From IMG/VR virus record IMGVR_UViG_3300042923_000318, positions 1-56,134 of that record: DNA of 56,134 bases; one strand, written 5' to 3'. This DNA comes from a virus (Duplodnaviria; Caudoviricetes). The notes under the pieces were generated by a model. That model made no database searches, had not been told where the DNA came from, and saw only the letters and a program-made list of their open reading frames with translations. Positions 10,289 to 53,334 of the stretch are shown in pieces (positions within the stretch are counted from its first letter, which is position 1; the number at the start of each line of letters is the position of its first letter). The translations under genes were made by a program, and so were the position numbers.

Positions 10289-10316
10289 AGTACAGAATTT
10301 GAAAATATTCCGTCAT
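10289..10316 (+). repeat. 28-bp cassette-boundary site (AGTACAGAATT TGAAAA TATTCCGTCAT)
   Basis: Matches the 11-6-11 site family; just upstream of the RBS of 10335..10595. Confidence 0.55.
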
Positions 10317-10334
10317 TAATGGGGGTTAAAGAAA

Positions 10335-10595
10335 TTGAAAGGCGTATGGCAATTACCTGTTTTAGAAAGAAGAACGATAAACGAACAATATATTAAGCAT
10401 AATGCTAAATATCATTATTATGAATATGAAGAACCAAGGGATATAAGTATATCTCCACTTGGCAAAAGTCTTTGCAATAAGCATGTTCAGCAAGTTGAGG
10501 ATTTTGAAAGTATAAAAGGTGGCGAAATATTAAGTAATCCACATATTGCTTGCAAAAGGTGTAGAGATAAATGGAGAAAGTTATTTAATCTTTAA
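10335..10595 (+). CDS. Hypothetical protein (cassette between two 28-bp sites)
   Basis: 86 aa, SLC..CKRC; flanked by sites at 10289 and 10594. Confidence 0.65.
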   Translation: MKGVWQLPVLERRTINEQYIKHNAKYHYYEYEEPRDISISPLGKSLCNKHVQQVEDFESIKGGEILSNPHIACKRCRDKWRKLFNL

Positions 10596-10621
10596 GGCGT
10601 AATACAAGAATATTTTAAATC
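10594..10621 (+). repeat. 28-bp cassette-boundary site (AAGGCGTAATA CAAGAA TATTTTAAATC)
   Basis: Begins at the 2nd base of the TAA stop of 10335..10595. Confidence 0.55.
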
Positions 10622-10635
10622 AAGGAGGCGCAATA

Positions 10636-10998
10636 TTGGCAAAGAATTATGAAGAAATAACAAGAAAGTTAGTTGCTGAATATTTGAAAGAAAAGACAAC
10701 AATTCATTCTGTTGCAAGAATGTTTAAGCTTACTTATCAGACAGCTAGAAGTGGAATTTTAAGAATAGAGCGATATGATAAAGAGCTTTATGAAAAAGTA
10801 ATTTTAAAGCTCAAGGCAAATAAAAGTAGTAGAGTAAGAGGCAAGTACAAAGAGACAATTTGGGACGAGTTTAAAGGTACTACACTTAAAAGAAATGATG
10901 TTATAGACATATATCTTATAAATGGCGGCACAGATACTTTGCAAGTAAGTGAATTGCTGCAACAGGTGAGAAGCCATGGAGTTCAAATATTAGGATAG
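10636..10998 (+). CDS. Diverged SpoIIID-like HTH protein
   Basis: EYLKEKTTIHSVARMFKL..RIERYDKELYEKV..LKANKSSRVRG parallels SpoIIID and 28124..28372. Confidence 0.5.
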   Translation: MAKNYEEITRKLVAEYLKEKTTIHSVARMFKLTYQTARSGILRIERYDKELYEKVILKLKANKSSRVRGKYKETIWDEFKGTTLKRNDVIDIYLINGGTDTLQVSELLQQVRSHGVQILG

Positions 10999-11008
10999 AG
11001 GTGTAATA

Positions 11009-11419
11009 ATGAATAAAGTTGTATTAATCGGAAGGTTAACAAAAGATCCAGAGTTGAAATTTACCCCAGGAAGTGGAACGGCTGTGGCAAGTTTCACAAT
11101 AGCAGTAGACAAGCGAGTAAAAAACGATACTGGGGAAAAGCAAGCTGATTTTATTTCTATAGTTGTTTGGGGCAAGACCGCTGAATATGTGGCTAATTAT
11201 TCTGCAAAAGGCAAATTGATAGGTATAAGCGGCAGAATACAAACACGTTCCTATGATGCTAAAGACGGCACAAAGCGTTATGTTACGGAAGTTGTAGCGG
11301 AGGAAGTACAAATATTAGAGTTTGCTAGAAGTTCAAATAGCGGTAGTGGTAATAGTAATTCTAATGGTTTTAACATGGATGGCATGACAGAAATAGACGA
11401 CGGAATTGTACCTTTTTAA
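11009..11419 (+). CDS. ssb: Single-stranded DNA-binding protein
   Basis: MNKVVLIGRLTKDPEL..GRIQTRSY..DDGIVPF. Confidence 0.95.
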   Translation: MNKVVLIGRLTKDPELKFTPGSGTAVASFTIAVDKRVKNDTGEKQADFISIVVWGKTAEYVANYSAKGKLIGISGRIQTRSYDAKDGTKRYVTEVVAEEVQILEFARSSNSGSGNSNSNGFNMDGMTEIDDGIVPF

Positions 11420-11562
11420 AGGAGTAAAGTTATGAGCAATAAATTAGCATTTCTAATAACTATAACGGCTCTAGGGAGCTTCATATTATCAAGCATACAT
11501 TTAGTAGCTTGGATAAGCGGAAAAGCTCACAGTGGCAAAATATTGAAGAAAAGAGGGATTTA

Positions 11563-11757
11563 ATGAAGATAGAGAGAGAAAGTTATCACACAACCTTTGA
11601 TAAGGAACTAAGAAAAGAGGTTAGTAAAACCGCAATTGATTTAGGTATAGAAGCAAATCAAGTCCTAGAGATTGCTTATGTGTATTTTAAAACTAATTGC
11701 AATATAGAAGAAGCCAGAAGAATATTAAAAGAAAGGAATGTTATAAATGACCAATGA
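11563..11757 (+). CDS. Ribbon-helix-helix-like protein
   Basis: RESYHTTFDKELRKEV..AIDLGIEANQVLE; ATG after GAGGG. Confidence 0.55.
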   Translation: MKIERESYHTTFDKELRKEVSKTAIDLGIEANQVLEIAYVYFKTNCNIEEARRILKERNVINDQ

Positions 11758-12304
11758 AGAACTATTTGCAAAAGGAGATATTGAAGCATTATATAATAAT
11801 AACTTAAAATATATGTTTAGCTTAAGATACAAATTTAAAGGCATGGACTGGGAAGAATTACAATCTTTATGCAATTTAGGATTTTCAAAAGCAGTCAAGA
11901 AGTATTCTCCAGATAAAAATGTTAAATTTATAACTTATCTTGCAATGTGCCTGCAAAATGAAGTATTTAAATATTTTAAAGATAGTAAGAAACACGCCAA
12001 CTTAGTATATTTAAGCGACTCCGTAGTATCTTATAAAAATGGACAATCGCAGACACTTGAAGACACCCTAAGCATAGAGATTGATTTTTTAGAAAATTTT
12101 ATTTGCAAAGAAGAAAACGAAGAATTAAAGAGCGCGTTGAACTGCTTAAGCAATAGAGAAAAAGCCGTAATGGATTTAGTATTAAGCAATAAAACTCAAG
12201 TTCAAATCAGTAAATTAATAGGAGTCCAGCAAGCAAGTATAAGCAGGATTCAAAAGAGATCAATAAACAAGATTAGAAGATTTTTAAATGGCTACAAAAA
12301 TTAA
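11747..12304 (+). CDS. Sigma-70 family (sporulation SigF/G-like) sigma factor
   Basis: GFSKAVKKYSPDKNVKFITYL..NEV region 2; TQVQISKLIGVQQASISRIQKR region 4. Confidence 0.85.
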   Translation: MTNEELFAKGDIEALYNNNLKYMFSLRYKFKGMDWEELQSLCNLGFSKAVKKYSPDKNVKFITYLAMCLQNEVFKYFKDSKKHANLVYLSDSVVSYKNGQSQTLEDTLSIEIDFLENFICKEENEELKSALNCLSNREKAVMDLVLSNKTQVQISKLIGVQQASISRIQKRSINKIRRFLNGYKN

Positions 12305-22583: not shown

Positions 22584-24188
22584 TTATAATCTTGGATGCA
22601 CATCTAATGTTTCACCGTCCCAATATATCACTTCGACTAATTCATTTACAATTCTTTTCTTTTCAGTCATAGTCAAAGATTGAAAGTTATTAATTAAATA
22701 TTTAGTGGTATTATTAAATATTTCAAAGTTCATAGTTTTAATTACAGTATCATTTTTATCACTTTTTAAAAGTGTTATCTTTTTATTTAGCTCTTTTATT
22801 TCTTCATCTAACTTTTCTATTTTCTGGACTATATATTTACTAGCTGTAGAATTTTCAGCATCAATAAGTTTTTCGGTTAATTTCCCGATATCCTTAGATA
22901 ATTTTTCTATTTGAGATTGAAAGTTTTTTATATCTTTCTCTATATTATCGCTATCAAGCAATTGTTTATTCTGCTGAAATAATTCTCTTGCCCCTTCTTG
23001 ATCATAATAAGTTCTTTTAAATTGCTCTATAAACAATTTATCTGCTTGAGTCCCTGCTATATTTTTAATGTTGCAGCCTTTGCCTTTTGTTAATATTTTG
23101 TTAGAACATCTATAATAATGATTTTTTCTTACACCGCCGTTATAATCAGCGGTAACAGAAAAAAATCCACCACAATTGCTACATCTTATAAGTCCGCTTA
23201 GCAATGCATCCATAGCCTGCCCTTGTCTTGGAAACTTGTCTGCATTTCTTAAAAATCGTTCTTGTACATCAATCCACTTTTCAGATTCTACGCAATATGG
23301 GTGCCTGCCTATTGCAACAATCCATTCGCTAGTATCTTTAGCAACATATTTCTTTTTAGATTGATCCTGCTTGTTATAACACATAACACCATACTCGCTA
23401 TTATCTCTAAATTCTTCAACAGAGTTACAAATTTGCATATTATTTTTCTTTGCATAATTATAAAAATTTATGTCAGCTTTACAATAAAAAGGATTTGCAA
23501 GCATTCTCCTTATAGAGTTTATATGAAAATATTTATTATCTTCATTTTTTATATTATTATCAACAAGGTATTTTGTAACTGCATTTAAACTATTGAAAGT
23601 TATATATTTATCAAACATAATTTTTAATTTATCTATTTGTGCATTGTCTATATCTAAATAGCAATCTTTCCCTATACCTATTTTTTTATATCCAAAAGGA
23701 GTATTTCCACCTAACCATTTTCCGCTTTTAGAAAGTTCAAGCATGTTATCTCTAACTCTTTCCGCTATAGTTTCTCTTTCTAATTGTGCAAATACACCAG
23801 CAATATACAACATAGCTCTACCCATTGGTGAAGTGGTGTCAAATTGCTCTCTTATAGATATAAATTCTATATTATAATCTTGTAAATCTTCAATTATTTT
23901 AGCAAAGTCGCCTATATTTCTGCTTATTCTATCTAATCTATAGCAGAGAATTATATTAAACATTTTATTTTTTGCATCCTTCATCATTTTAGAAAAGTTA
24001 GGGCGGTCAATATTGCCGCCGCTAAATCCTTCATCCTCATAAACAAAGATATCGTTTACTTTTTTATAGTTTTTATGTATGTATTCTTTACACATTTGAA
24101 CTTGGTTTTCTACGCTATCTGAATTCTCTATGTATCTGCTTTTGCGACTATATATCGCTATGTTTAAATTATCCATAATTTTCACCAT
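22584..24188 (-). CDS. Large serine recombinase (integrase)
   Basis: IAIYSRKS, DEGFSG..RP, YRLDRISR, FAQLERETIAER, zinc ribbon C..C..YYRC..C, coiled coil. Confidence 0.95.
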   Translation of the reverse strand: MVKIMDNLNIAIYSRKSRYIENSDSVENQVQMCKEYIHKNYKKVNDIFVYEDEGFSGGNIDRPNFSKMMKDAKNKMFNIILCYRLDRISRNIGDFAKIIEDLQDYNIEFISIREQFDTTSPMGRAMLYIAGVFAQLERETIAERVRDNMLELSKSGKWLGGNTPFGYKKIGIGKDCYLDIDNAQIDKLKIMFDKYITFNSLNAVTKYLVDNNIKNEDNKYFHINSIRRMLANPFYCKADINFYNYAKKNNMQICNSVEEFRDNSEYGVMCYNKQDQSKKKYVAKDTSEWIVAIGRHPYCVESEKWIDVQERFLRNADKFPRQGQAMDALLSGLIRCSNCGGFFSVTADYNGGVRKNHYYRCSNKILTKGKGCNIKNIAGTQADKLFIEQFKRTYYDQEGARELFQQNKQLLDSDNIEKDIKNFQSQIEKLSKDIGKLTEKLIDAENSTASKYIVQKIEKLDEEIKELNKKITLLKSDKNDTVIKTMNFEIFNNTTKYLINNFQSLTMTEKKRIVNELVEVIYWDGETLDVHPRL

Positions 24189-25600: not shown

Positions 25601-26464
25601 ATGAGCGATTTAGTAAAAGCAAATAGCCAAAATAATGTTAAAAGCTTACTAGCAAATGTAGGTTACAAGAAAAGATTTGAAGAAATACTTGGCAAGAAAG
25701 CTGCAGGTTTTATGAGTTCTTTGATTAATCTTACAAACTCTGACGTTAACCTTTCAAAAGCTGATGCAAACAGCGTAATAGCATCCGCAGTAGTTGCAGC
25801 AACATTGGATTTACCTGTTGACAAAAATCTCGGATTCGCGTGGATATTGCCTTATGGTACTAGAGCACAGTTCCAATTAGGCTATAAAGGCTATATACAG
25901 TTAGCTTTAAGAACAGGTCAATATAAAAATATCAACGTAATTGAGATTTACAAAGGTCAATTAATAGACTTTAATCCACTTACAGAAGAATTAAAACTTG
26001 ATTTTTCTAAGAAGGAAAGTAACGAAGTAATAGGGTATGCAGCTTACATTAAACTTGTTAATGGATTTGAGAAAACTGCATATAAGCCTAAAGAAGATGT
26101 AACAGCTCATGCTAAAAGATTTTCTAAAACTTTTAACAATGGTCCATGGAAAACTGATTTTGACGCAATGGCTAAAAAAACAGTGTTAAAAAATACTTTA
26201 AGTAAGTGGGGAATACTTAGTATAGAAATGCAAACAGCAATTCAAGCGGATCAAGCAGTTATTAAAAACGAGGTTGCAGAGGGCGCAGAAGTAAGCGCAG
26301 AAACCATTGAATACGCTGACGGAATTAAAGATGCTGATTACACTCCAGTTACCACTGAACCAGTAAAAACCAAACTAGATGATAAGTTTAAAAAAGCAGA
26401 GGAATCAGAAAAGCAAAGCGAAAATATCTACGAAGGGACACCTTTTGACGAGGGGGAAAATTAA
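25601..26464 (+). CDS. recT: RecT-family single-strand annealing recombinase
   Basis: AATLDLP..LGFAWILPY..AQFQLGYKGYIQLALRTGQY..DFDAMAKKTV. Confidence 0.92.
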   Translation: MSDLVKANSQNNVKSLLANVGYKKRFEEILGKKAAGFMSSLINLTNSDVNLSKADANSVIASAVVAATLDLPVDKNLGFAWILPYGTRAQFQLGYKGYIQLALRTGQYKNINVIEIYKGQLIDFNPLTEELKLDFSKKESNEVIGYAAYIKLVNGFEKTAYKPKEDVTAHAKRFSKTFNNGPWKTDFDAMAKKTVLKNTLSKWGILSIEMQTAIQADQAVIKNEVAEGAEVSAETIEYADGIKDADYTPVTTEPVKTKLDDKFKKAEESEKQSENIYEGTPFDEGEN

Positions 26465-27255
26465 TGAGTGAACTTTTAAAACTCACGGATGATAATTACT
26501 TTAGTCTTGAAATGGAAAATGAATATATGGGCGTTTCTCAATTTAAAGCTTTTAGAGAATGTGAAGCTAAGAAAATGGCAGAACTTAAAGGATTGTGGAA
26601 GGATAAAGAAAGTACCGCATTATTAGTCGGTTCATATGTTCACTCACACTTTGAAGGTGCTATTGATAAATTTAAGCAAGAAAACCCTGCGATATTTACA
26701 AATAAAGGTGAACTTAGAGCAGATTACAAAGAAGCGAATGAAATGATTAACTGCTTAGAAAGTGACGAATCATTCCAACAAATTTACACTGGAGAAGTAG
26801 AGCAAATATTTACTGCTGAATTATTTGGCGCAAAGTGGAAAATAAAAGTAGATTGCTTAAACCTTGCAGAAAGTTATTTTGTAGATTTAAAGACCACTAG
26901 AGGTTTTGAAAGACAATGGGCAGAGATAGACGGTAAAAATGTAAAAGTAACATTTGTTGAGGCTTGGGGTTATTTAATCCAGGTAGGCGTATATAAAAAA
27001 ATATTAGAACTTGCAACGGGAAATAAAGATTTAGAAGCTTTCATAATAGCAGTAACCAAGCAATCCCCACCCGACAAGATGGTGCTGCGATTTAATCCAG
27101 AAGACTACGAAATTGGCTTAAAGGTTGCAGAGGACAATATTGCACACATTCTAGATGTTAAAAGTGGTAAGGTGACGCCAGTCCGATGTGAGAAATGCGA
27201 CTATTGCAGAGCTACTAAGAAGCTGGATAGAGCTTATCACTATTCAGAATTATAA
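26464..27255 (+). CDS. PD-(D/E)XK exonuclease (RecE/DUF3799-like)
   Basis: YMGVSQFK..ALLVGSYVH..KIKVD..VDLKT..Y.IQ..Y..CEKCDYC. Confidence 0.85.
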   Translation: MSELLKLTDDNYFSLEMENEYMGVSQFKAFRECEAKKMAELKGLWKDKESTALLVGSYVHSHFEGAIDKFKQENPAIFTNKGELRADYKEANEMINCLESDESFQQIYTGEVEQIFTAELFGAKWKIKVDCLNLAESYFVDLKTTRGFERQWAEIDGKNVKVTFVEAWGYLIQVGVYKKILELATGNKDLEAFIIAVTKQSPPDKMVLRFNPEDYEIGLKVAEDNIAHILDVKSGKVTPVRCEKCDYCRATKKLDRAYHYSEL

Positions 27256-31252: not shown

Positions 31253-31280
31253 AAGTCGTAATAGCTAATTATTACGAACT
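31253..31280 (+). repeat. 28-bp cassette-boundary site (AAGTCGTAATA GCTAAT TATTACGAACT), near-perfect dyad
   Basis: TCGTAATA/TATTACGA inverted arms around a 6-bp spacer; immediately upstream of MTase RBS. Confidence 0.7.
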
Positions 31281-31286
31281 AGTGAG

Positions 31287-32195
31287 GTGAAGCCAATGAT
31301 ACAAATATTGGAGTTATTTGGGGGCATAGGAAGTCCACGAAAAGCCTTAATAAACTTAGGAGTACCAGTCAAGGCAATTGACTATGTTGAGATAGATGAA
31401 AAGGCTGTAAGAAGCTATAATGCAATATTTAAAAAGGAACTAGAACATAAAACTCAATCAGTAGTAGGGTGGAATCTTAAGCCGGACATTCTAATTCATG
31501 GCTCGCCTTGTCAAGATTTTAGTATAGCAGGACACCAAAAGGGAGCAGATGAGGGCAGTGAAACTAGGTCAAGCCTTATGTGGGAAACTTTAAATATCAT
31601 TAAACAGATGGGAGTATGGAAACCAAGGATTGTTATATGGGAGAATGTTAAGAATGTTTTATCAAGGCACATGATCCATAACTTTAGTAAGTACCAAGAA
31701 GAAATGCAGAAGATGGGATATACAAGTAATTATGAAGTTCTTAACGCTATGGATTTTGGACTTCCACAAAATAGGGATAGAGTATTTACTATATCATGCT
31801 TAGATGGCTCATTCTTTAACTTTCAGACATTAGAAAAGAAGCCTATGAGAAATATTAGAGAGTTTTTAGAGACTAATGTTTCTGATGAATTTATGGTTAC
31901 GCAGCCAAGCATATTAAGTGTAATAGGCAAAAAAGGAATTAAGCGAGCAACTGTGATTGAAAATTATTGCTATACAATTACAGAAAGGCAAGACAGATGC
32001 CCAGCTCAGGTAATAGACTTAGGTAATGGTAAGTATAGATTTCTGACAGATAAAGAATGTTGGTTGCTACAAGGATATTCAGAAGAAGACTATTATAATG
32101 CTGCAAAAGTCAATACAAGGAGAGCTTTGTATAAACAATCTGGTAACTCAATTCCTGTAACAATTTTTGAAAGTATATTTAAGCAACTGATTTAA
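31287..32195 (+). CDS. DNA (cytosine-5) methyltransferase, orphan
   Basis: LELFGGIG, GSPCQDFS, WENV, PQNRDR and QSGNSI motifs. Confidence 0.95.
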   Translation: MKPMIQILELFGGIGSPRKALINLGVPVKAIDYVEIDEKAVRSYNAIFKKELEHKTQSVVGWNLKPDILIHGSPCQDFSIAGHQKGADEGSETRSSLMWETLNIIKQMGVWKPRIVIWENVKNVLSRHMIHNFSKYQEEMQKMGYTSNYEVLNAMDFGLPQNRDRVFTISCLDGSFFNFQTLEKKPMRNIREFLETNVSDEFMVTQPSILSVIGKKGIKRATVIENYCYTITERQDRCPAQVIDLGNGKYRFLTDKECWLLQGYSEEDYYNAAKVNTRRALYKQSGNSIPVTIFESIFKQLI

Positions 32196-32221
32196 GACAG
32201 AATATGAAATAAATATGAAAT
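32194..32221 (+). repeat. 28-bp cassette-boundary site (AAGACAGAATA TGAAAT AAATATGAAAT)
   Basis: Begins at the 2nd base of the MTase TAA stop. Confidence 0.55.
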
Positions 32222-42588: not shown

Positions 42589-42616
42589 TTATCGAAATTC
42601 GCTAAGATAGCGACTA
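42589..42616 (+). repeat. 28-bp cassette-boundary site (TTATCGAAATT CGCTAA GATAGCGACTA)
   Basis: Matches the family; directly before RBS of 42630..43181; partner site not evident. Confidence 0.45.
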
Positions 42617-45833: not shown

Positions 45834-48800
45834 ATGGCACAACCATATGAATTTACACTTGATTATAAGATATTCAAAGGTTATCCAGTGATGATATATA
45901 CCAAAGGTGATGCAGAGGCTACACCGATGATCATAACCTTAACCGATAGAAATATAGCAGAAAATTTAACTAATAAATACGTAACGGTAACCATAAAACG
46001 ACCCGACAATCAATCGTTTGTTTATATTGCAAATATTGTAGCTCAAAATAAAATAAGCTTTACGCCTAATCTACAAGCTTTAAATACACAGGGCATAGTC
46101 TTAGCTAACATACAAGTCTATGAGGGCAATATAAGGGTTTCAACGACTAGATTCCAATATCTTGTAGCAGGTGAATTGATAAATGGCGAACTTGTGGAAG
46201 ATGACAGTAATTTTCCAGTGCTGACTAATTTAATTGATGACGTAAATAAGGCTAAAGAGGGCATTGGAGTTATAGGAAGTTTAAGCGAGGATTTAACTGA
46301 AAAGATAGAAGAAGCCGAAACAATTGATGGAACTTTAGCAAGCAGGATTTCAACTGGTAATACTCTTAAAAATAGCTTGGATGCTGACATTGCAACAGGA
46401 AGCACATTGCATACTAATTTAAACGCAGATATAGCTGCAGCTAATACCGCAAAATCTAATCTAGACGGAAGTATTACAACAGCAGGAACAACAAAAAGCG
46501 AGCTTGATGCAAGCAATACAACTGCTAATACTACTAAAACCGCACTGGAAAATACTATAAGTGATGCAGATACAGCAAAAGAAGATTTGCAAATTGTTAT
46601 TGCTACAGCGGATACTACTACTTATGCCACTAAGGGAGAGATAAATGATGTTAATTCGCAATTGGCAGAAAAGGCGAATCAATCTTATACCGACAACCAA
46701 TTAGCATTAAAAAGAGATAAATCTGTACCAATGGAGTTAGAGGATTTCTCTGCCACTGTGTTAGGAGCGATTGATGGAACGGGAGGCCCCTTCAATTTAT
46801 TGTCCATACCTCAAGACAGCTCTGTAACTCCCGAAAAAACCACTTATTTAACAGTTGGGAGAAATAAATTTAATAAGTACAGAATGTTATTAGGTAACTT
46901 GATAAATACAACAGGCGGACTTACTGTTAGTTCTGGTTATGCTACAACACTAGACTATATTCCAGTAAAAGCTGGCGAGGTTTGGACATTTAAACGGGTA
47001 AGATATATTGCCTTTTATGATAGTGATAAAGTTTTTATAAATAGGATAGATAGAGCCGGATCTTCAGCAGAAAACACAGAAACCATTGCAAATGATGGTT
47101 TTGTTAGAATAACAACATACAACGGAACAAGTTCAAATTTTTGGATTGAATTAGCATATATGGCAAAAGAGAATTCTTATTCAGGATATGAATCATATAA
47201 AATGGGTTCCGCAAGTTTAGAAGTTGATAATTCAAATTTAAAAAATTCAAATATAAATGCTGAAAAGTTAGCTGGTGATATACCGGCTGAAAAAGTTTCT
47301 TTCGTGTTAATAGGTATAAATAAAACTAACAAGATAAAGCACTCTTTGGGATACATTGTGTCTGAAACAGATGGAAACATTACAGTCAATGCTTCGTATA
47401 ATACTACGGAATATATTCCGGTAAAAGCAGGAATAACCTATGTGGCTAATTACCCAAGAAAGATTGCTTTATATGACAATAATAAACTTTTTCTTAGTGG
47501 TATAGACGTCCCAATTATAATTGCTACGACATTTACTCCCAGTGTAGACGGATTTGTTCGAATAGCTTACAGTAGTTCAAGAAGTGATTTTCAAATCGAA
47601 ATTGGTTCTACACCAACCAGTTATGTACCATATAGTTATGTAATGGACAATTTAGAATTTAACAACGATCAAAAACAAAAAATTAAAGAATTTATTGCAT
47701 TAAAAATATATAAAGTTGGAAATCTGTATAAAATAAGAAGTGTTTTTGATGATGTTAACGACATGGTTATTGAAGTTTCTTCTAATGGCTCATTAAATGG
47801 TTCGTTTAGATTCGAAAGAAGTTATTTAATCCCCGTAAGTTCAGAAAATTTTAGTAACATAGAAGTCTTTCATCCAAACAGTCAAGATGATATTACACCA
47901 ATTAGAACATTTTATACGGTTGGAGCCAATCACGGATATGCATCACTTCAAATTAATGCTACGGGTTATACCAGTGCGGACTTAGGAAGCACATGGACAG
48001 ACGGATCAACGATATTCACCATGGTAAAAACAACCAGTACTTATGTTCAATTTGTATCAGAATATATCGTTGATGGTAATGGAATAGTTAGCGCAAAATC
48101 AATAGTTCCAATTGCTAATTTAACCCACGTTAGTGGAGCAACAAACACAACAGCTATTCCAATTTCAGGATATACAACACCAAATTTGTTTCCATCAATC
48201 AATAATAAAAGTGTTAAATTTGTGTTGGATGGTAAAGAAATTATAGCAGATGGTACTTATTATGGAATAGACCTGCAAGTACAAGAGTCTTATAACGTTA
48301 TGGACTATAAATCACTTATTGATTATGCACAGTCTCATATTGGAACAAGCTATGAGAACAACAGCGTTGAAGGCGTTGTGAGGCTATCTATTAATTATAA
48401 TTTTAAAGAAAAGGGTTCAGTATTGATTAATCACAATATTAGAATTTTGAAAAAAGTATCAATGGGAGACTGTGGTTTTGTGCAATATTTTCCAATTGGT
48501 CTGAGTGGACATATTTTGACTAGATACTTACCTAACTCATTAACCAATGGTGGATATAATTTTAAAAACATAGTTGATATGACAAGTTATTCGTCAAATT
48601 TAATTTTTACATCGGCTTACTATGAGAACTCAAACATTCCACCTCATAGAAATATAGATTGGGCGGTCAATTCTTCAACATCGGTTAAAAAAGTTGGATT
48701 TGCTTTTGGATATTTGCCTGATAAATCAAGTGGTAAACATGCACAACGATTAATAAATACTCCCAGAGCTTGGGACATGAGGGGTACAAAAAAATCTTAT

Positions 48801-49118
48801 CCTATTGCGTTAACAGGTTTAACTTTAGAACCTGGGCAGTATTTTAACTTTACTGCATACAGAAATTATCTATCGCCTAATTGGAAACCAAATGCTACAG
48901 ATTTCTATATCGTGCAGGACAAGAAAGATGTGTATGTGTTTATTGACTATCATCAAAGTGTATCTTTTGAAAATATAAAATTGGACAATTATATTGGAAA
49001 ATCAATATCTGTAGTAGAAAGCGAAAACTTTACAATTGTGAATGATATTGTGGATGCAGATGGAGTTATTTTCACCATAGCCAATGGATATGGATATGCA
49101 ATTTTGAAGTTAAGTTAA
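45834..49118 (+). CDS. Large BppU-type virion appendage/adhesin (N-terminal anchor, coiled-coil stalk, variable beta-rich C-terminus)
   Basis: N-terminal KRPDN..GIV.ANIQVY..F.Y.V (DUF2479/BppU-like); Ala/Thr heptads; two GxNK.NK..TT.YIPVKAG..YD repeats. Confidence 0.7.
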   Translation: MAQPYEFTLDYKIFKGYPVMIYTKGDAEATPMIITLTDRNIAENLTNKYVTVTIKRPDNQSFVYIANIVAQNKISFTPNLQALNTQGIVLANIQVYEGNIRVSTTRFQYLVAGELINGELVEDDSNFPVLTNLIDDVNKAKEGIGVIGSLSEDLTEKIEEAETIDGTLASRISTGNTLKNSLDADIATGSTLHTNLNADIAAANTAKSNLDGSITTAGTTKSELDASNTTANTTKTALENTISDADTAKEDLQIVIATADTTTYATKGEINDVNSQLAEKANQSYTDNQLALKRDKSVPMELEDFSATVLGAIDGTGGPFNLLSIPQDSSVTPEKTTYLTVGRNKFNKYRMLLGNLINTTGGLTVSSGYATTLDYIPVKAGEVWTFKRVRYIAFYDSDKVFINRIDRAGSSAENTETIANDGFVRITTYNGTSSNFWIELAYMAKENSYSGYESYKMGSASLEVDNSNLKNSNINAEKLAGDIPAEKVSFVLIGINKTNKIKHSLGYIVSETDGNITVNASYNTTEYIPVKAGITYVANYPRKIALYDNNKLFLSGIDVPIIIATTFTPSVDGFVRIAYSSSRSDFQIEIGSTPTSYVPYSYVMDNLEFNNDQKQKIKEFIALKIYKVGNLYKIRSVFDDVNDMVIEVSSNGSLNGSFRFERSYLIPVSSENFSNIEVFHPNSQDDITPIRTFYTVGANHGYASLQINATGYTSADLGSTWTDGSTIFTMVKTTSTYVQFVSEYIVDGNGIVSAKSIVPIANLTHVSGATNTTAIPISGYTTPNLFPSINNKSVKFVLDGKEIIADGTYYGIDLQVQESYNVMDYKSLIDYAQSHIGTSYENNSVEGVVRLSINYNFKEKGSVLINHNIRILKKVSMGDCGFVQYFPIGLSGHILTRYLPNSLTNGGYNFKNIVDMTSYSSNLIFTSAYYENSNIPPHRNIDWAVNSSTSVKKVGFAFGYLPDKSSGKHAQRLINTPRAWDMRGTKKSYPIALTGLTLEPGQYFNFTAYRNYLSPNWKPNATDFYIVQDKKDVYVFIDYHQSVSFENIKLDNYIGKSISVVESENFTIVNDIVDADGVIFTIANGYGYAILKLS
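46653..46680 (+). repeat. 28-bp cassette-boundary site inside coding sequence (AATTCGCAATT GGCAGA AAAGGCGAATC; encodes NSQLAEKAN)
   Basis: Left arm 10/11 identical to the 49809 site; right arm 10/11 identical to the 50723 site. Confidence 0.7.
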
Positions 49119-49255
49119 TTAGTCTTAGGAGGAAAATTATGATACCGTTAAAAAATATATTATCGAAAAATAAAAGTATTAAAATCGATGATTTAATTAA
49201 AGATGAGTACAAAAAACTTTGCTCTGACAATAATCTTAACAAAACAAGAAAGTAA

Positions 49256-49284
49256 GAAGGGTTTTTCTGTGTTTTGACGAATAT
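49256..49284 (+). promoter_or_regulatory. SigH-like promoter
   Basis: GAAGGGTTT-11 bp-GACGAATAT fits RNAGGAWWW-N11/12-RNNGAATWW with one mismatch. Confidence 0.55.
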
Positions 49285-49308
49285 CCCCAATAAGGGGAGT
49301 GATGAAAA

Positions 49309-49803
49309 ATGGCAAGAATTATAGGTTCAATAGATAGCGTAGCACCCAAAGTGCCATCAGAGATTTTAACAAAAATTCAAATGGTGGCTACATATAAGCT
49401 AACCAACAGAGAAGCAACGTTGTTTACGTACGCATTGGAAGCCATAAATAGTCAATTAAAACATGACAATAAATTATATAAAGAATTGAGAAATGTGGTT
49501 ATAATTTTCACTAAAGACGGCTCATATTGCGTTCAAGATGATTACTCGATGGGTAGTCTTGGGACTTACGCTGTATTTAGTATTCAAGCGTGGAGGGATA
49601 AGGAATGGTCTGAACTTAATATTATAACAGTCTTTGTTGAAGAATTATGTCATCATTTTTGGGGTATAAAAGACGAGGAAGAAGTAAAGTATAAAGTTTT
49701 AGAAGTCATCAATAGAATTTTTAAACAAAAATTACAGTTTGAAGATATTTTTCTACCCACATGGAAAGAGGGTTATCCGCATATTTATGGGAATCAAAAA
49801 TAA
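49309..49803 (+). CDS. Moron; zincin-like hypothetical protein
   Basis: EELCHH..DEEEV variant metal-binding motif; own promoter and terminator. Confidence 0.6.
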   Translation: MARIIGSIDSVAPKVPSEILTKIQMVATYKLTNREATLFTYALEAINSQLKHDNKLYKELRNVVIIFTKDGSYCVQDDYSMGSLGTYAVFSIQAWRDKEWSELNIITVFVEELCHHFWGIKDEEEVKYKVLEVINRIFKQKLQFEDIFLPTWKEGYPHIYGNQK

Positions 49804-49808
49804 AAGGT

Positions 49809-49836
49809 AATTCGCAATAGGAAAAAATTACGAACT
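49809..49836 (+). repeat. 28-bp cassette-boundary site (AATTCGCAATA GGAAAA AATTACGAACT)
   Basis: Dyad TTCGCAAT/ATTACGAA; 5 bp after the stop of 49309..49803, before the terminator. Confidence 0.7.
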
Positions 49837-49949
49837 TAAGAGAGCTAACCCCTCTCTTTTTTATTTACAAACATGTCCGATTTAACTTTACAAGTAAACC
49901 TATATAGGATATAATGTAATTAAGTAATAAAGTACAGAGGTGAATTGAT

Positions 49950-50339
49950 ATGAGATTATGGCATGAAGATTTAATTCCTAAATTACCAAGACAACAATTA
50001 TTAGGGCAACATAGAGAGTGTTGTGCGTTGCGCGGTAATGGTTGGAGCAAGAAACACGCTACAGTAAACTATGTATTCAGTCACAAGCTTGAGTTTCTTG
50101 TTGCGTATCACTTGAAAGTTATAGAAGAAATGCAGTTAAGAGGCTATAACGCATCTGCTGAATGGCTTGATTACAATTATCGAGGTAAAGCGTGTGGCAA
50201 GGCAAAATTAGATCTAAGCAGCATTGATAGAATCAAAAACCTTAAACCGATTTATCGAGAACACGACAACAATTATTTGCTTGAATGTATAGAAAATTTA
50301 AAAAGTAAAGGGATAGAATTAGAGGAGGAGAGGAAATGA
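49950..50339 (+). CDS. TIGR02328-family (pyrimidine dimer DNA glycosylase-like) protein
   Basis: MRLWHEDLIPKLPRQQLLGQHRECCALRGNGW.KKHATVNYVF..IY.EH..YL.EC..NL..KGI. Confidence 0.9.
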   Translation: MRLWHEDLIPKLPRQQLLGQHRECCALRGNGWSKKHATVNYVFSHKLEFLVAYHLKVIEEMQLRGYNASAEWLDYNYRGKACGKAKLDLSSIDRIKNLKPIYREHDNNYLLECIENLKSKGIELEEERK

Positions 50340-50719
50340 ATATTAAATTTATAGCTTGGGATATTCAAGATTCAATTATGCTTAAAGGAAGTTCGGTGGT
50401 AATTGGAAGTAATGACGATGCTTATTTTTTAGATGGTGACGGAGAATGGAAAGATTGTGGAGACAGAGTGAAATTAATGCTTTATAGTGGGATAACAGAT
50501 AAAAACAAAGAGGAAATTTACACTGATTTTATAGTTAAACGAACTTCTATGACTCCAGGGGGGATTGATTTTGTTGGCTTGGTTACTTTTGCAGAGGGTA
50601 GATTCTGGATTGATAACGGGCAACAGGCAGTACCGCTATTTAGCGAAGCTGACGAGCTGGATATACTGGGGCATAGGTACGAGGAATCAGAGAAGGTTGA
50701 GAAGTGGCTGGGGTTATAA
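50336..50719 (+). CDS. YopX-family protein
   Basis: IKF.AWD..LM.YSGITDKN..EIY..IV..ILGHRYE. Confidence 0.85.
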   Translation: MNIKFIAWDIQDSIMLKGSSVVIGSNDDAYFLDGDGEWKDCGDRVKLMLYSGITDKNKEEIYTDFIVKRTSMTPGGIDFVGLVTFAEGRFWIDNGQQAVPLFSEADELDILGHRYEESEKVEKWLGL

Positions 50720-50722
50720 TTT

Positions 50723-50750
50723 ATTACTGAATTTGAAATAAAGGCGAATT
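50723..50750 (+). repeat. 28-bp cassette-boundary site (ATTACTGAATT TGAAAT AAAGGCGAATT)
   Basis: Between YopX stop and RBS of 50768..50980. Confidence 0.6.
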
Positions 50751-50767
50751 ATTGAAAGGGTGATTAT

Positions 50768-50980
50768 ATGAATGGTTTAACTCAAATAAAAGATAAAGAT
50801 GGAATTCTATATGATGTTCAATATGATTTAGATTTTGAAAGATTTCTTATATTTGAACATGATAGAGAAAATGTTAAAGGTAATTATTTTACGAGTAAAG
50901 ATATACAAAGGTTCTTAGAAACTAAGCAAATAATAATTGTTAATGATGGCGACAAAGTGTTTGAAAAGTATTTGAATTAG
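50768..50980 (+). CDS. Hypothetical protein (cassette between two 28-bp sites)
   Basis: 70 aa; flanked by sites at 50723 and 50979. Confidence 0.65.
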   Translation: MNGLTQIKDKDGILYDVQYDLDFERFLIFEHDRENVKGNYFTSKDIQRFLETKQIIIVNDGDKVFEKYLN

Positions 50981-51006
50981 TTCGTAATTCAAGAAATTTG
51001 AGAATT
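50979..51006 (+). repeat. 28-bp cassette-boundary site (AGTTCGTAATT CAAGAA ATTTGAGAATT)
   Basis: Begins at the 2nd base of the TAG stop; spacer identical to the 10594 site. Confidence 0.6.
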
Positions 51007-51038
51007 AACAACTTACCAAAATATGTTATAATTACATC

Positions 51039-51158
51039 AAGTGGGAGAAGATATTTGCAACATCTTCATACACCGTGCCTCCGAGCGGTTCCCACTTATA
51101 TAAAAATATCGGAGAAACATTTTTCGGAGGATTACCAATATCGGTAGTCCTTTTATTT
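51039..51158 (+). ncRNA. Candidate C4/CI-like three-way-junction RNA with CCUCCGA loop, two downstream targets and terminator
   Basis: TGTTATAAT at 51024; stems AAGTGGGA/TCCCACTT, GAAGAT/ATCTTC, ACCG/CGGT; TCGGAG at 51109 and TCGGAGG at 51124; terminator 51129-51158. Confidence 0.65.
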
Positions 51159-51186
51159 TAAGACTTTTAAAGAGTCTTTTTTATTT

Positions 51187-51240
51187 TGTACGATATTTAT
51201 TTACTTAACTATTGCATAATGTACGTTATTACTTTATAAT
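51187..51240 (+). promoter_or_regulatory. Promoter with two TGTACG operator copies
   Basis: TGTACGATATT at 51187; TTGCAT-17 bp-TATAAT with TGTACGTTATTACTT in the spacer (51220). Confidence 0.7.
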
Positions 51241-51269
51241 GTAAGTATAAACATTAAAGAGGTGGTAAA

Positions 51270-51422
51270 TTGGCTAACAAAGAGACAAAACCAAGATTTG
51301 TCGCTGATTGCGATTCAGAACTAAAAAAGGAAATAAAAACTTTCTGCGTTAAGAAAGGAATAGATTTAAAAGATTTTGTTATTTCAGCAATACTTGAGAA
51401 ATATGAAAAAGAAAAAGATTAA
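51270..51422 (+). CDS. Ribbon-helix-helix regulator, 50 aa (not in ORF track)
   Basis: AGAGGTGG RBS, TTG start; RFVADCDSELKKEIKTFCVKKGIDLKDFVISAILEK. Confidence 0.7.
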   Translation: MANKETKPRFVADCDSELKKEIKTFCVKKGIDLKDFVISAILEKYEKEKD

Positions 51423-51533
51423 TATATGAGGAGGTGGAAACCATGGTAGGGAAAATAGTGTGCGACGTATTCCCATACCACAGCTTTAGGCAAAAAATAA
51501 GATTAACAAAAGAATTAAAGCATAAGGGCAGAA

Positions 51534-51869
51534 TTGAGGTGTTTAATAATGCCTTTATCCTCTGTTACTATTATACCAAAAATTCCAATAATAAAAATTA
51601 ACGGCATGGTGAAAAAAATTATAGATTATGAAGATTACGAAGATGATGAAATTGAATATTCCCAAGAAGAGGAAAGCCAAGTAATTGGAGAATTGCAAAT
51701 AGGATTAATGCTAAATGAGATTGAAATTTGTACAAGCAAGAAAAAGCTCAAAGCATGGTTTGCTAATATCCAAATGAAAAAGACCAAAAATAATATTGAT
51801 TATTGCCCAAACATTAGCGGTCAAGATTTAATTCAAATAGCGAAGGAGCAGGGGTTTAAAATATTATGA
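51534..51869 (+). CDS. Hypothetical protein (true start probably ~51607-51610)
   Basis: Acidic segment followed by globular C-terminus. Confidence 0.4.
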   Translation: MRCLIMPLSSVTIIPKIPIIKINGMVKKIIDYEDYEDDEIEYSQEEESQVIGELQIGLMLNEIEICTSKKKLKAWFANIQMKKTKNNIDYCPNISGQDLIQIAKEQGFKIL

Positions 51870-52229
51870 TGGATGCAGAGAAAAGAAAAAGAGAAGCTTT
51901 ATTCATGTATAACATGTTAAGAAGAAGAAAAATTAATAAACAAAAGAAAATTGATAGGGATAACATAGGAATTGTTGTGGATTATTTAGAAAAGGGCAGG
52001 AGGAGAGGGCATAATCAAAATAGGATTTATGGAGCTTATTAAGAGTAAGGGGTGATGAAATGAAGATTCTTTATATATTTATAGCAATTCATTTTTTAGC
52101 TGAATTTATAGCAAATATAAGAAAAGACAAAACAATGACGGATATAATTAGTTCTGTAATTTTCTTTCTAGTTGAATGTTGTTTTATGGTAAATATCATT
52201 AATTATATTTTTAAATAAGGAGAAATAAA

Positions 52230-52481
52230 ATGAGAAGATTTTTTGGAATGATGCCTAGCGCAGAAATTGAAATAGAAAAACAATATAAGGATAAAAACGG
52301 ATATAGAATAACAATTCAATCTGGTCAGCATGGTTGGACTGTTATTTACACAGATTCATCAACAGAATATAAAGATATAGATTGCACAACGGATGAAAAC
52401 TTTAAAGCTGCTTATAATTTAGCAACAAGTAGATTAGGGGAACTAACTGAAATACAAGATTTAAGGAGTAATTCTTTATGA
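52230..52481 (+). CDS. Hypothetical phage protein
   Basis: AAGGAG RBS. Confidence 0.6.
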   Translation: MRRFFGMMPSAEIEIEKQYKDKNGYRITIQSGQHGWTVIYTDSSTEYKDIDCTTDENFKAAYNLATSRLGELTEIQDLRSNSL

Positions 52482-52885
52482 ATATACAAGAATTTGCAAA
52501 TAAATTAAACGGTCGAGAGTATGGCTTTGAAATAACAAAAGAGGAAGAAAAAGAAGCAGAATACTTAGGATATGTTGTAGTATTCGGATATTCTGATGAC
52601 AATATTGAGTTTAGAGGAGCTATTAATGACGAGATTGGTTGTTATGGTGCTAAAAGAGTATATTTAGATAAAAACGGAATAATTGAAAAATGCGAATGTC
52701 ATTGTAAATACTGGGGAAAAGCAAAAGAAAATGCTAAAACAATAAAAGCCGTATCAAATGATGATGATTGCTTTGAATTTTATTGGCACTACGAAACAGA
52801 TATTCCTCATGCTACATTTGAAATTTACGAAAATGGAGAGGATTATTGTAAAGGAATAGTTTTTGATATAAAAGAATTAAGTTAA
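52478..52885 (+). CDS. Conserved hypothetical phage protein
   Basis: LNGREY..VVFGYSDD..EFRGAI.DE..TDIPHATFEIYE.GE.YCKGIVF. Confidence 0.7.
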   Translation: MNIQEFANKLNGREYGFEITKEEEKEAEYLGYVVVFGYSDDNIEFRGAINDEIGCYGAKRVYLDKNGIIEKCECHCKYWGKAKENAKTIKAVSNDDDCFEFYWHYETDIPHATFEIYENGEDYCKGIVFDIKELS

Positions 52886-52939
52886 AAGATAAAAATGAAT
52901 TGTTAGAGCTAATAAAGAGAATGTGAAAGAAGGTAAAAA

Positions 52940-53197
52940 ATGAAAGAAAGTATGGCAATATTAGTAACAAATATATATGAAAATATGAATAATATTTTTA
53001 AAGAAGATGACTATATTGAGCCGGCAACAATAAATGCAAACGAAATAGATGAAAACTTTTTTACTGCTGAACTATTAGCATTAAAATTGCAATTTGAACG
53101 TTTAACCCAGCAATCTTTAGATTTAATTGAATTTACACACTTACTAAATAAATTAGCTGTACAATATTTACTAGAGAATAATGCACAATTTGAATAA
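52940..53197 (+). CDS. Hypothetical protein
   Basis: RBS; ends in a partial 28-bp site (53180) encoding NAQFE. Confidence 0.6.
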   Translation: MKESMAILVTNIYENMNNIFKEDDYIEPATINANEIDENFFTAELLALKLQFERLTQQSLDLIEFTHLLNKLAVQYLLENNAQFE

Positions 53198-53334
53198 AAG
53201 TAATATGCAATAAAATAGATATAAAGCATAAACCACGTTTAACTACGTGGTTTTGTTCGTTATAAGCTAATATTTTAAAAGTATGTTATAGTATTATTAG
53301 TTAATCTATATCTTACAAGAAAGGAGGAAACTTC

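Follow-up and report, generated by a model that had tools for sequence, protein, structure and literature searches.

The window analysed here is the whole 56,134-nt stretch of a Caudoviricetes virus record (IMG/VR IMGVR_UViG_3300042923_000318). It carries a C5 cytosine methyltransferase gene, a BppU-like receptor-binding gene, a serine integrase gene and a RecT/nuclease pair, which are listed in Table 1 together with ten 28-bp sites that a preliminary description had read as one family of 11-6-11 dyads bracketing single accessory genes. Sites are called by their first position, and four of them also A (31253), D (50979), E (46653) and F (49809).

Table 1. Features of the window discussed in the text
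Feature	Position	Strand	Remarks
Proposed pair of sites around ORF 10335-10595	10289..10621	+	no half-site, no fold, best matches elsewhere
Large serine recombinase (integrase)	22584..24188	-	no other site-specific recombinase in the record
RecT-family annealing protein and PD-(D/E)XK nuclease	25601..27255	+	Pfam PF03837, PF12684; the phage's own homologous-recombination pair
Site A, intergenic palindrome (8-bp stem, 6-nt loop)	31253..31280	+	2 nt past the stop of ORF 30999-31250
C5 cytosine methyltransferase unit (RBS, ORF, stop)	31279..32195	+	Pfam PF00145; absent from X2
Proposed site downstream of the methyltransferase	32194..32221	+	no half-site, no fold; kept from position 3 in X2
Proposed unpaired site	42589..42616	+	leave-one-out score -2.6 bits
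BppU-like receptor-binding (fibre-type) protein, 1094 aa	45834..49118	+	PHROG matches on residues 17-275
Site E, coding copy of the junction element	46653..46680	+	inside the fibre-like gene; codes NSQLAEKAN
Cassette delimited by X2: distal fibre part and ORF 49309-49803 (164 aa)	46672..49814	+	
Site F, noncoding copy, direct orientation	49809..49836	+	5 nt past the stop of ORF 49309-49803
Proposed site upstream of ORF50768	50723..50750	+	left breakpoint at site position 15
ORF50768 unit (70-aa ORF and RBS)	50738..50976	+	absent from X2
Site D	50979..51006	+	left half-site TTCGTAAT only; overlaps the ORF50768 stop
Proposed unpaired site	53180..53207	+	4/11 dyad matches; overlaps mostly the end of ORF 52940-53197

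Reading the sequence at all ten places, we found the 28-mers as described, each preceded by T, with C5, AAT at 8-10 and W11 invariant. In three pairs the downstream site does begin at the second base of a stop codon (10594, 32194 and 50979), so that "motif" positions 1-2 are stop-codon letters there. The claimed bracketing of gene edges is wrong for site 46653, which is located wholly within the 1094-aa ORF. The dyad symmetry of the ten sites is weak, with 7, 5, 9, 5, 6, 8, 8, 5, 7 and 4 complementary arm positions out of 11.

Taken together, the ten sites do not rise above chance level as a family. Dyads of the 11-6-11 type are not enriched in the window compared with 100 dinucleotide shuffles: 148 reach at least 8/11 (146.7 +/- 11.2 in the shuffles) and 13 reach at least 9/11 (18.1 in the shuffles). 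The ten-site alignment holds 23.31 bits of information, and gapless ten-site alignments from 18 shuffled windows, obtained with a crude greedy search using 1500 of ~56,000 seeds, held 21.73-24.02 bits (mean 23.03), six of them at least 23.31. The half-site TCGYAATW occurs 8 times for 8.93 expected. A position weight matrix (PWM) built from the ten sites, the check suggested at the outset, fails to generalise: all training sites (lowest score 14.8 bits) lie above the best non-training place (12.8 bits), and six of the seven independent non-training places scoring at least 8 bits are fully coding. For sites 10289 and 10594 the top window-wide matches are unrelated places, and we judged the pair to be chance from these matches and the lack of half-site and fold; ORF10335 has 14 homologues (56-83% identity) on varied contigs, and a search for homologues of its neighbour ORF10636 found none. 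Seven of the sites (10289, 10594, 32194, 42589, 50723, 53180 and probably 50979) would be short AT-rich intergenic spacers, stop-codon letters included, and appear to align only as well as random DNA of equal composition. E, F and A are mutually best or second-best matches among ~112,000 positions searched, with 20/28 identical bases between E and F and 22/28 between F and A.

A relative of this phage was found in X2, an independent soil-metagenome run represented by assembled contigs, with one contig per joint. The units singled out in the preliminary description are real, since X2 lacks the methyltransferase and ORF50768 and has 46671-49815 replaced; the pairs around the methyltransferase and ORF50768 did not stand as recombination sites, these two gaps being off register. 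X2 joins window position 31278 to 32196, so the methyltransferase is absent there, and joins 50737 to 50977; 917 and 239 bases are skipped, whereas deletion from site to site with a crossover in the spacer had been predicted to remove 941 and 256. At the methyltransferase gap the upstream site is retained through position 26 and the downstream site from position 3, both being almost whole on the listed X2 pieces. The single hybrid site expected after deletion is apparently present at neither gap, although the letters between the joined ends are "not known" for two joints. The ORF50768 gap is flanked by 7-nt direct repeats, ATTTGAA (50731-50737 and 50970-50976), and X2 homology resumes 2 nt before site D, whose end overlaps a promoter-like site and whose best window-wide match is an unrelated place. 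Site 32194 matches site A at 18/28 bases, tied with unrelated places, and an X2 contig piece spanning 41778-43460 crosses site 42589, with no joint listed at the site.

These comparisons bear on the view of all ten sites as 11-6-11 targets of a tyrosine recombinase, in the manner of Xer/dif, with flanking pairs excising or inserting single promoterless genes. In favour of this view, units absent or replaced in X2 match three of the four proposed pairs, the ORF50768 gap has its left break (50737) in the proposed spacer 50734-50739, and in one other methyltransferase context, L109, a palindrome with a PWM score of 14.5 stands at the same place. However, the register of the joints contradicts this view, as do the chance-level statistics of the ten sites, the near-whole sites at the methyltransferase gap and the coding nature of site 46653. 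Moreover, in 13 other contexts the methyltransferase shows nucleotide homology only between the RBS and the last codons, with no such site upstream in 12 of the 13 and none downstream in any. In four Clostridiaceae genomes the pattern is no commoner than a backwards control. Neither a tyrosine recombinase nor any Xer-like feature was found in the record, whose sole site-specific recombinase is, as had been noticed, the large serine recombinase. We consider this view extremely improbable. The methyltransferase, ORF50768 and a three-gene unit (38671-39404) look like ordinary accessory-gene indels, whose edges would track gene edges and would not come from recombination between the proposed sites. 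All four half-site loci within the X2-compared stretch (A, E, F and D) coincide with X2 breakpoints, and the half-site itself could matter at more places than we credit.

The proposal that the pair 46653/49809 brackets an exchangeable cassette was borne out, both ends of the X2 replacement falling inside these sites. An X2 contig matches the window from 46034 to 46671 (inside E), continues with 1329 other letters and matches again from 49815 (inside F). F is the best match of E among the ~112,000 window positions; it stands after the second ORF downstream of E, directly followed on its 3' side by a terminator-like hairpin (49838-49858). Similarity alone does not make the case, since the 20/28 identity of E and F is within the range usual for best chance matches (19-21); their position and the relative carry it. 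The 1094-aa protein combines a constant N-terminal part of 279 residues with an exchangeable distal part; PF10651 is found in its homologues, one of which is annotated as a BppU family baseplate upper protein. P0003 (720 aa), encoded on a JGI contig of 52,129 nt, shares 90% identity with the window protein over residues 1-283 and is unrelated from residue 280 on, directly past VNS(Q/E)LAE; as P0003 reads S-E-L-A-E and then unrelated residues, the palindrome is not intact in its lineage. The E codons TCG (Ser) and GCG (Ala) are rare, accounting for 6.0% of Ser and 9.8% of Ala codons in the window ORFs. ORF49309, the second gene of the cassette, matches phrog_33355, a function-unknown family. 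Most likely, E and F genuinely are the two boundary copies of a junction element that is short and palindromic.

The same fibre-tip layout is shared by at least 24 uncultured phage contigs with TTCGCAAT-N8-ATTGCGAA, conserved at synonymous positions. Scanning IMG/VR with this 24-nt pattern gave 100 sites at 99 loci, which come largely from one sample and are mutually related, so that they cannot be counted as independent events. Of the 100 sites, 62 fall in open frames of 120 codons or more, mostly coding (N/D/S)SQ(F/Y/L)KDIA(N/K), and the site-bearing ORFs scanned match tail fibre, tail spike or minor tail PHROGs. At least 21 of the 30 records searched whole hold a second copy in direct orientation at a distance of 1.2-3.3 kb downstream. 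The second copy is noncoding in 25 pairs (24 fetched loci) and, for the 23 pairs with a computed gap, the distance from the preceding stop is at most 13 nt in 13 and at most 55 nt in 20. The mean top-base frequency is 0.94-0.98 within the block versus 0.51-0.60 in the flanks, and the two copies of a pair have 18-23 of 24 bases in common, their flanks 14-41 of 60. When SQFKDIAN was searched for with degenerate codons, 39 of the 40 matches were motif hits; in this motif Ser is TCG in 34/37 and Ala is GCG in 38/39 cases, against backgrounds of 3.9% and 5.9% in the ORFs of those phages. Such retention of rare codons points to constraint at the DNA level. Flanks are shuffled among 98 sites: 10 left-flank types occur with at least two right-flank types and 9 right-flank types with at least two left ones, including one full four-combination square. 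The N-terminus of the window fibre shows no pairwise similarity by BLASTP to that of L127, one PHROG family being the only one common to both.

These data also address a reading without any DNA element, in which E would be no more than a peptide motif conserved where two domains meet, F and A would resemble it by chance, and all differences from X2 would come from ordinary illegitimate recombination screened by selection. The E-F and A-F similarities are not significant alone, since best chance matches of 19-21/28 are usual in the window and 15% of 60 shuffles hold pairs of dyads with at least 19/22 arm identities, and the peptide motif recurs in other BppU-like proteins. However, F is not just any match of E: it is the best of ~112,000, lies 5 nt past the last stop of the cassette and coincides with the right X2 breakpoint. 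Together with the two-copy layout of the 25 pairs found elsewhere and the rare codons kept by the motif, this makes such a reading quite unlikely.

Site A is the best match of site F, and is retained through 31278 in X2, which lacks the methyltransferase. Its RNA fold of -7.7 kcal/mol (8-bp hairpin, z -2.05) is equalled by 8 of 200 shuffles, and it may represent the junction element as a lone copy, or be a hairpin that serves some other purpose. The palindromes could act in RNA or gene regulation, as a transcript-stabilising or transcript-ending hairpin or as an operator, and lie at module edges because transcription units end there. The hairpin of site A, the terminator-like hairpin adjoining F, the promoter-like site adjoining D, and the L109 palindrome, which compared by eye with A shows a compensatory change and a G-T pair, are consistent with such a role. 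However, F, E and D fold no better than shuffles (z -0.38, -1.40 and -1.44), there is a C-A mismatch in the sense strand of F, and regulation leaves unexplained both an identical in-frame copy within a fibre gene and the free assortment of flanks. We hold regulation to be very unlikely as the main explanation.

We favour, with moderate confidence, the interpretation that the ten sites are not one family and that E and F are short homology anchors for the exchange of receptor-binding-tip cassettes. The putative junction element would consist of the arms TTCGYAAT and ATTRCGAA with eight bases between them, its left copy (E) being read in frame at the border of the constant N-terminal and variable distal parts of the BppU-like gene and its right copy (F) lying just past the stop of the last gene of the variable segment. 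Near-identical among phages with a common host pool, the two copies may provide minimal homology anchors, and a double crossover by the phage RecT/nuclease pair or by host recombination would swap the whole receptor-binding tip in frame.

Homology anchors need neither a palindrome nor matching sequences at the two ends, features that a sequence-specific protein would explain better and that count against anchors. The element could instead be the target of a dedicated sequence-specific enzyme, either a recombinase or a nicking or cutting protein, of phage or host origin. It is palindromic, with a spacer of 8 nt between two 8-nt arms, direct copies of one sequence stand on both sides, synonymous sites are kept with conservation falling sharply beyond ~24-28 nt, and the difference between coding and downstream copies is consistent over the 25 pairs. 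As these copies differ in their spacers (TTAAAGAT versus TTAAAAAT), an enzyme would exchange like copies between genomes and would not delete the cassette within one genome. However, no recombinase family is common to all carriers, the window having only its large serine integrase and four other carriers only one tyrosine integrase each; neither circles nor hybrid sites were seen, and an Asp codon accounts for the spacer G of the coding copy. A dedicated enzyme thus seems unlikely to us, and homology anchoring remains our preferred interpretation.

Several known systems resemble parts of this arrangement. In pdif modules and Xer/dif systems, small gene units lie between 28-bp 11-6-11 sites, as in the layout drawn here, but unlike those systems no arms are conserved over the ten sites, no Xer-type enzyme is in the record, breakpoints are off register and no hybrid site was seen. 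Mu Gin, P1 Cin and shufflons invert tail-fibre segments between inverted repeats, with an adjacent invertase and alternative tips in opposite orientation. They share with the window a recombination site inside a fibre gene at the constant/variable border, whereas the repeats here are direct, with no invertase nearby and no opposite-strand tip. Integron gene cassettes and attC sites have been reported in phages too (PMC9892861). Like the cassettes in the part of that work available, the units here are promoterless single genes, the methyltransferase unit being exactly RBS and ORF; unlike them, the window has no integron integrase, no attC-like site closes the unit on its 3' side, and the downstream "site" stays from position 3 when the methyltransferase is absent.

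Conserved "linker" sequences at module borders are an older idea. Relaxed homologous recombination by Red and Rad52-like recombinases has been described as a source of phage mosaicism (PMC2327257, PMC3945230). As far as the available portions of these papers describe it, the likeness lies in short common stretches where modules meet and in an annealing protein encoded by the phage, here RecT, whose role would be analogous; the anchors here differ in being palindromes of unusual shortness, with one sequence at both ends. Receptor-binding proteins are exchanged as modules at a conserved N-terminal anchor in the modularity of tail fibres and tailspikes (PMC10408124, PMC10579305). In the literature searched, including the accessible parts of these two papers, no description was found of two-copy palindromic bracketing of a fibre tip: here two direct 24-28-nt palindromic copies bracket the block, one in frame and one past the stop, and the in-frame copy is conserved at synonymous positions. 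Like the systems in those accessible parts, the present one keeps the N-terminal part constant, swaps the distal part as a block together with a small following gene, and has a module common to unrelated phage types.

The record is classed as linear and 77% complete and has a GC content of about 0.32, and its Pfam annotation shows a contractile-tailed phage of the low-GC Firmicutes type. Three islands of accessory genes (5325-12304, 38000-43600 and 45834-53200) break up the virion gene order; among their products are AntA and Bro antirepressor-like proteins, SSB, a sigma factor, HicB, a T5orf172 protein, a DnaD-like protein, a pyrimidine-dimer glycosylase and YopX. Head genes (MuF, prohead protease) stand on both sides of the BppU-like fibre gene, which is thus outside the baseplate block. 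There are also sporulation-related homologues, namely a SpoIIID-like regulator (28103-28372), a sigma-70-type factor (11747-12304) and a Cse60-like small protein (6851-7045, minus strand). An 83-aa ORF (30999-31250), just 5' of the palindrome at 31253, has a PHROG 'transposase' match (E 5.6e-18) restricted to the N-terminal half of the profile, while Pfam and NCBIfam yielded no match; on these grounds its reading as a transposase, or as part of a hairpin-guided transposon, was dropped.

Features of the window phage, and units compared with X2, an independent relative found in a soil-metagenome run
Feature	Position	Strand	Basis	Remark
Terminase	36156-37661		Pfam	
Portal	43634-44932		Pfam	
Capsid	54376-55488		Pfam	
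Sheath-type and baseplate genes	within 2-20 kb		Pfam	
Amidase with ChW repeat			Pfam	
534-aa serine integrase	22584-24188	minus	Pfam	
RecT and PD-(D/E)XK nuclease	25601-27255		Pfam	
C5 methyltransferase	31287-32195		Pfam	
DnaB; dUTPase			Pfam	both present
Methyltransferase unit	31279-32195			absent from X2
Three-ORF unit	38671-39404			absent from X2; own promoter-like and terminator-like flanks
ORF50768 unit	50738-50976			absent from X2
Site 49809				noncoding; begins 5 nt past the stop of ORF 49309-49803; terminator-like hairpin follows

The preliminary description had proposed that ten 28-bp sites, with 11-bp arms around a 6-bp spacer, form one family of Xer/dif-like recombination sites bracketing accessory genes. 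All ten 28-mers are present exactly as written, each preceded by T, and three downstream sites do start on base 2 of a stop codon, which accounts for their opening letters. Site 46653 is away from any gene edge, wholly within a 1094-aa ORF (45834-49118). The dyad symmetry is modest, with 7, 5, 9, 5, 6, 8, 8, 5, 7 and 4 of 11 arm positions complementary from the first site to the last. Dyads of the 11-6-11 type with at least 8/11 complementary positions number 148 in the window versus 146.7 in shuffled sequence, and those with at least 9/11 number 13 versus 18.1. The ten-site alignment holds 23.31 bits; the best ten-site alignments obtained by a crude search in 18 shuffled windows range from 21.73 to 24.02 bits, and 6 of the 18 attain 23.31. 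The half-site TCGYAATW is not enriched (8 observed, 8.93 expected), and a position weight matrix (PWM) built from the ten sites, the check that had been asked for, revealed nothing new at gene edges and did not generalise. By bits, dyad counts, half-site and PWM, the ten sites taken as one family amount to no more than chance. Near-perfect matches to the 'ideal palindrome' are in excess, but this excess is circular, the three sites that produce it being the ones from which the consensus was drawn up. The sub-motif ACWGAATWTGAAAW, derived post hoc after its copies had been seen, has three perfect copies (at 10292, 32197 and 50726) and 25 matches with up to two mismatches versus 16.7 expected; triples of this kind are, by our own estimate, a chance expectation. 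Sites 10289, 10594, 32194, 42589, 50723 and 53180 show nothing beyond composition, and site 50979 has the left half-site only. Short AT-rich intergenic spacers call for caution: the eye readily finds good alignments among them, and as they occupy the space from one gene to the next, nothing more is needed for them to meet indel edges.

Among GenBank phages, megablast found no match to 42.5 kb of the window, and tblastn found nothing for ORF50768 and only four Bacillus phage records for ORF10335 (31-35% identity). IMG/VR protein scans with DnaB, ORF50768 and P0003, a 720-aa protein of a 52,129-nt JGI contig related to the 1094-aa fibre protein, confirmed no relative; ORF10335 returned a 14-residue match only, and a single locus (57% identity) came from the scan with the pyrimidine-dimer glycosylase. 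In IMG/VR, no further occurrence of the exact 26 nt of site 31253 was found, and a family-wide DNA search with 9500-11450 retrieved host ssb genes only. A scan of JGI metagenomes with the portal protein gave a single match (31% identity), and a scan of GTDB with the terminase a single Clostridium brassicae prophage (65% protein identity for the terminase). This prophage is the nearest genome match; it has the same gene order, with 40-65% protein identity, is too distant for breakpoints, and carries in its DnaB-to-dUTPase slot two unrelated ORFs and no methyltransferase. Finally, parts of the window are present as assembled contigs in three soil-metagenome runs from three studies (X1, X2 and X3), with 37% of sampled words of the window found in X2 and 17% in X3. 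X1, which is probably the source sample, contains a low-depth contig with X2-type letter differences at 31244 and 32235-32366, and both variants may co-occur in this one sample.

Contigs of X2 were placed on 31201-51200, with one contig per joint. Among the joints listed, beyond which there are nineteen others, that from 31278 to 32196 skips 917 bases and lacks the methyltransferase, that from 50737 to 50977 skips 239 bases and lacks ORF50768, that from 38670 to 39405 has 17 other letters in place of the three-ORF unit, and that from 46671 to 49815 carries 1329 other letters, so that the stretch between two of the ten sites is replaced. Since the proposed sites fill short intergenic spacers, any break at a gene edge must touch them, and the register is the informative point; it does not fit. 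A crossover leaving one hybrid site, as had been predicted, would remove 941 and 256 bases from site to site versus the 917 and 239 skipped at these two X2 joints, where extra letters may lie between the joined ends. At the methyltransferase gap, the listed pieces retain positions 1-26 of the upstream site and everything from position 3 of the downstream one. ORF50768 is missing from between two copies of ATTTGAA (50731-50737 and 50970-50976), a signature of slippage or of other short-homology events. The unit at 38671-39404 contains three small ORFs (38775-39402); a terminator-like hairpin and then AT-rich, promoter-like sequence come before it, and a second terminator-like hairpin closes it. 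It is a textbook moron, with none of the ten sites at either edge. All four half-site loci within 31201-51200 coincide with X2 breakpoints; beyond their gene-edge position we cannot fully explain this coincidence, and it is the main reason against dismissing a wider role for them.

The methyltransferase was also found in other contexts, its DNA matching three Clostridium perfringens phages and ten Clostridiaceae genomes with 69-84% protein identity. In the five contexts that were aligned, homology begins at the ribosome-binding site and stops in the last codons. The closest homologue alone has the upstream palindrome at the same place (PWM score 14.5 bits), the other 12 contexts scoring at most 3.6 bits upstream; downstream, none of the 13 contexts reaches 10 bits, and in several the genes on either side are too close for a 28-bp site to fit. 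The gene travels as a ribosome-binding site plus ORF, without flanking sites. At one of these loci (L111), a stretch of about 15 nt at the methyltransferase stop codon recurs about 45 nt 5' of the start, and this repeat may be the remnant of a tandem paralogue.

The pair formed by sites 46653 and 49809 behaves as had been proposed in that it brackets an exchangeable cassette, the ends of the X2 replacement falling in both. Site 46653 lies in the 1094-aa fibre gene, for whose product Pfam gave nothing and no match was found among solved structures; PHROG matches cover its residues 17-275, and its homologues carry PF10651 (BppU_N), one source naming a BppU family baseplate upper protein. The gene product is a receptor-binding protein of the fibre or baseplate type, and its N-terminal anchor is conserved. 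P0003 is 90% identical to it over residues 1-283 and unrelated from residue 280, directly after V-N-S-(Q/E)-L-A-E, in agreement with the X2 joint at 46671. Relatives share the N-terminal part of the fibre and differ wholly past a sharp junction. By arithmetic on the record coordinates, the P0003 stop codon would fall four bases short of the segment whose alignment starts at 49815, and the X2 and P0003 coordinates together place the other end of the replaced block within site 49809. Across the whole window, site 49809 is also the best match of site 46653. Site 31253, a true small hairpin that stays when the methyltransferase is absent from X2, is the best match of 49809, with a similarity that is not significant alone; it may be a solitary copy of the same element or an unrelated hairpin.

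With the core of the 'ideal palindrome' as query, IMG/VR yielded 100 sites in 99 loci. Within long open frames lie 62 of them, most coding (N/D/S)SQ(F/Y/L)KDIA(N/K); the product of site 46653, V-N-S-Q-L-A-E-K-A-N, is a motif of this type. The carrier ORFs that were scanned match tail fibre, tail spike or minor tail families (PHROG). When 30 records with a coding copy were searched at full length, at least 21 had a second, directly oriented copy 1.2-3.3 kb farther along the sense strand. Among 25 pairs taken from 24 loci, this second copy is always noncoding; in the 23 pairs for which the distance from the preceding stop codon could be measured, it is at most 13 nt in 13, at most 55 nt in 20 and more than 150 nt in 3, and in the remaining two the long frame seems, by our own arithmetic, to end inside the copy. 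Conservation is limited to a block of about 24-28 nt. Its spacer differs consistently, being TTAAAGAT in the coding copy and TTAAAAAT in the downstream copy, which often ends in GCGTA, and the flanks of the block assort freely at both copies alike. In a codon-degenerate scan, the motif serine was TCG in 34/37 cases and the alanine GCG in 38/39; these are the rarest codons in the carrier phages, with backgrounds of 3.9% and 5.9%. In the IMG/VR set, the junction is kept at the DNA level and is joined to varied flanks. In the window's own lineage such conservation is only partial: copy 46653 uses the same two rare codons, and the motif is altered in P0003.

Three records of 135-140 kb with terminal repeats (G420, G430 and G436) hold several coding-then-noncoding pairs each, three in G420, three in G430 and at least two in G436, and the examined pairs of the first two are in ORFs of the fibre type. 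As phages of 25-65 kb carry this 24-mer too, the cassettes seem to be common to phages of very different kinds. In one provirus (L131), two noncoding copies of the palindrome (2274-2297 and 2779-2802), 505 bases apart, flank a single 99-aa ORF, and similarity reaches about 25 nt beyond each copy in both directions; of all cases observed, it comes nearest to a single-gene unit between two sites. One Clostridiaceae prophage has a looser version of the two-copy layout. Two carrier loci had no megablast match among GenBank phages, 44 nt spanning the coding copy retrieved weak partial matches only, and literature searches brought up no description of the two-copy fibre layout, which does not prove that there is none.

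A discrete block, conserved at the DNA level and with freely assorting flanks, stands at both ends of an exchangeable receptor-binding tip, and single X2 contigs show a natural swap of the tip in the window's own lineage. The two copies most likely act as minimal homology anchors, at which a double crossover would replace the tip in frame, and the enzymes would be the phage RecT/nuclease pair or host functions. About 25 bases is near the lower limit of homology for such annealing enzymes. Published work on relaxed recombination by phage annealing proteins (PMC2327257, PMC3945230) fits an anchor mechanism. However, homology anchors need neither a palindrome nor the same sequence on both sides, features that would suit a sequence-specific protein acting on the element instead; yet the carriers do not have any one recombinase family in common, and the protein would have to come from the host or belong to some other class. 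In its widest form, which we consider unlikely as a whole, low-GC phages of several unrelated types would share a dedicated cassette-exchange system for receptor-binding tips. An in-frame palindromic site of 24-28 nt at the constant/variable border and a slightly different site just past the cassette stop would both be recognised by a hypothetical sequence-specific protein, like sites exchanging between genomes and unlike sites within one genome not deleting the cassette. Additional places where accessory genes insert would be marked by solitary copies, 31253 being an example.

The clean exchange of host-range modules among phages has long been debated: one view holds that junctions are random and then selected, and another that short conserved border sequences guide the exchange. 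A 24-28-nt block that brackets the tip, is kept at synonymous positions and is joined to freely assorting flanks offers a concrete, testable example of guided exchange. If this is true, the block would help to predict and engineer the host-range cassettes of uncultured low-GC phages, and would be a marker for unannotated receptor-binding genes.

The mosaic units picked out in the preliminary description are genuine, and one of its pairs does mark the boundary of a cassette. Its ten-site family, its Xer/dif analogy and its hybrid-site mechanism are not supported. Xer/dif (pdif-like) sites require 11-bp arms conserved beyond chance around a 6-bp spacer, which the ten window sites lack, and an in-register crossover at the spacer borders leaving one hybrid site, which the X2 joints do not display. 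They also require a tyrosine recombinase, and there is no PF00589 candidate in the window, a record of the phage alone. Such sites would further resemble the dif site of the host chromosome; in four Clostridiaceae genomes, which may not include that host, the site pattern is no commoner than its backwards control, and no dif site was identified. Integrons require an integrase and an attI, whereas the window record has no PF00589 candidate. An attC stands at the 3' end of the cassette and is split on excision; the window's methyltransferase unit carries no site, and the site downstream of it stays from position 3 on in the relative and is missing in 13/13 other contexts. Gin/Cin systems and shufflons use inverted repeats and opposite-strand tips, whereas the copies in the window and in the carriers are direct repeats and the window has no long opposite-strand ORF in 46.1-49.3 kb; Gin/Cin also has an adjacent invertase, while the window's sole serine recombinase is the 534-aa integrase about 22 kb off. 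The accessory-gene indels, or morons, of mosaic phages are self-contained units with edges at gene borders, and all three units absent from X2 qualify as such.
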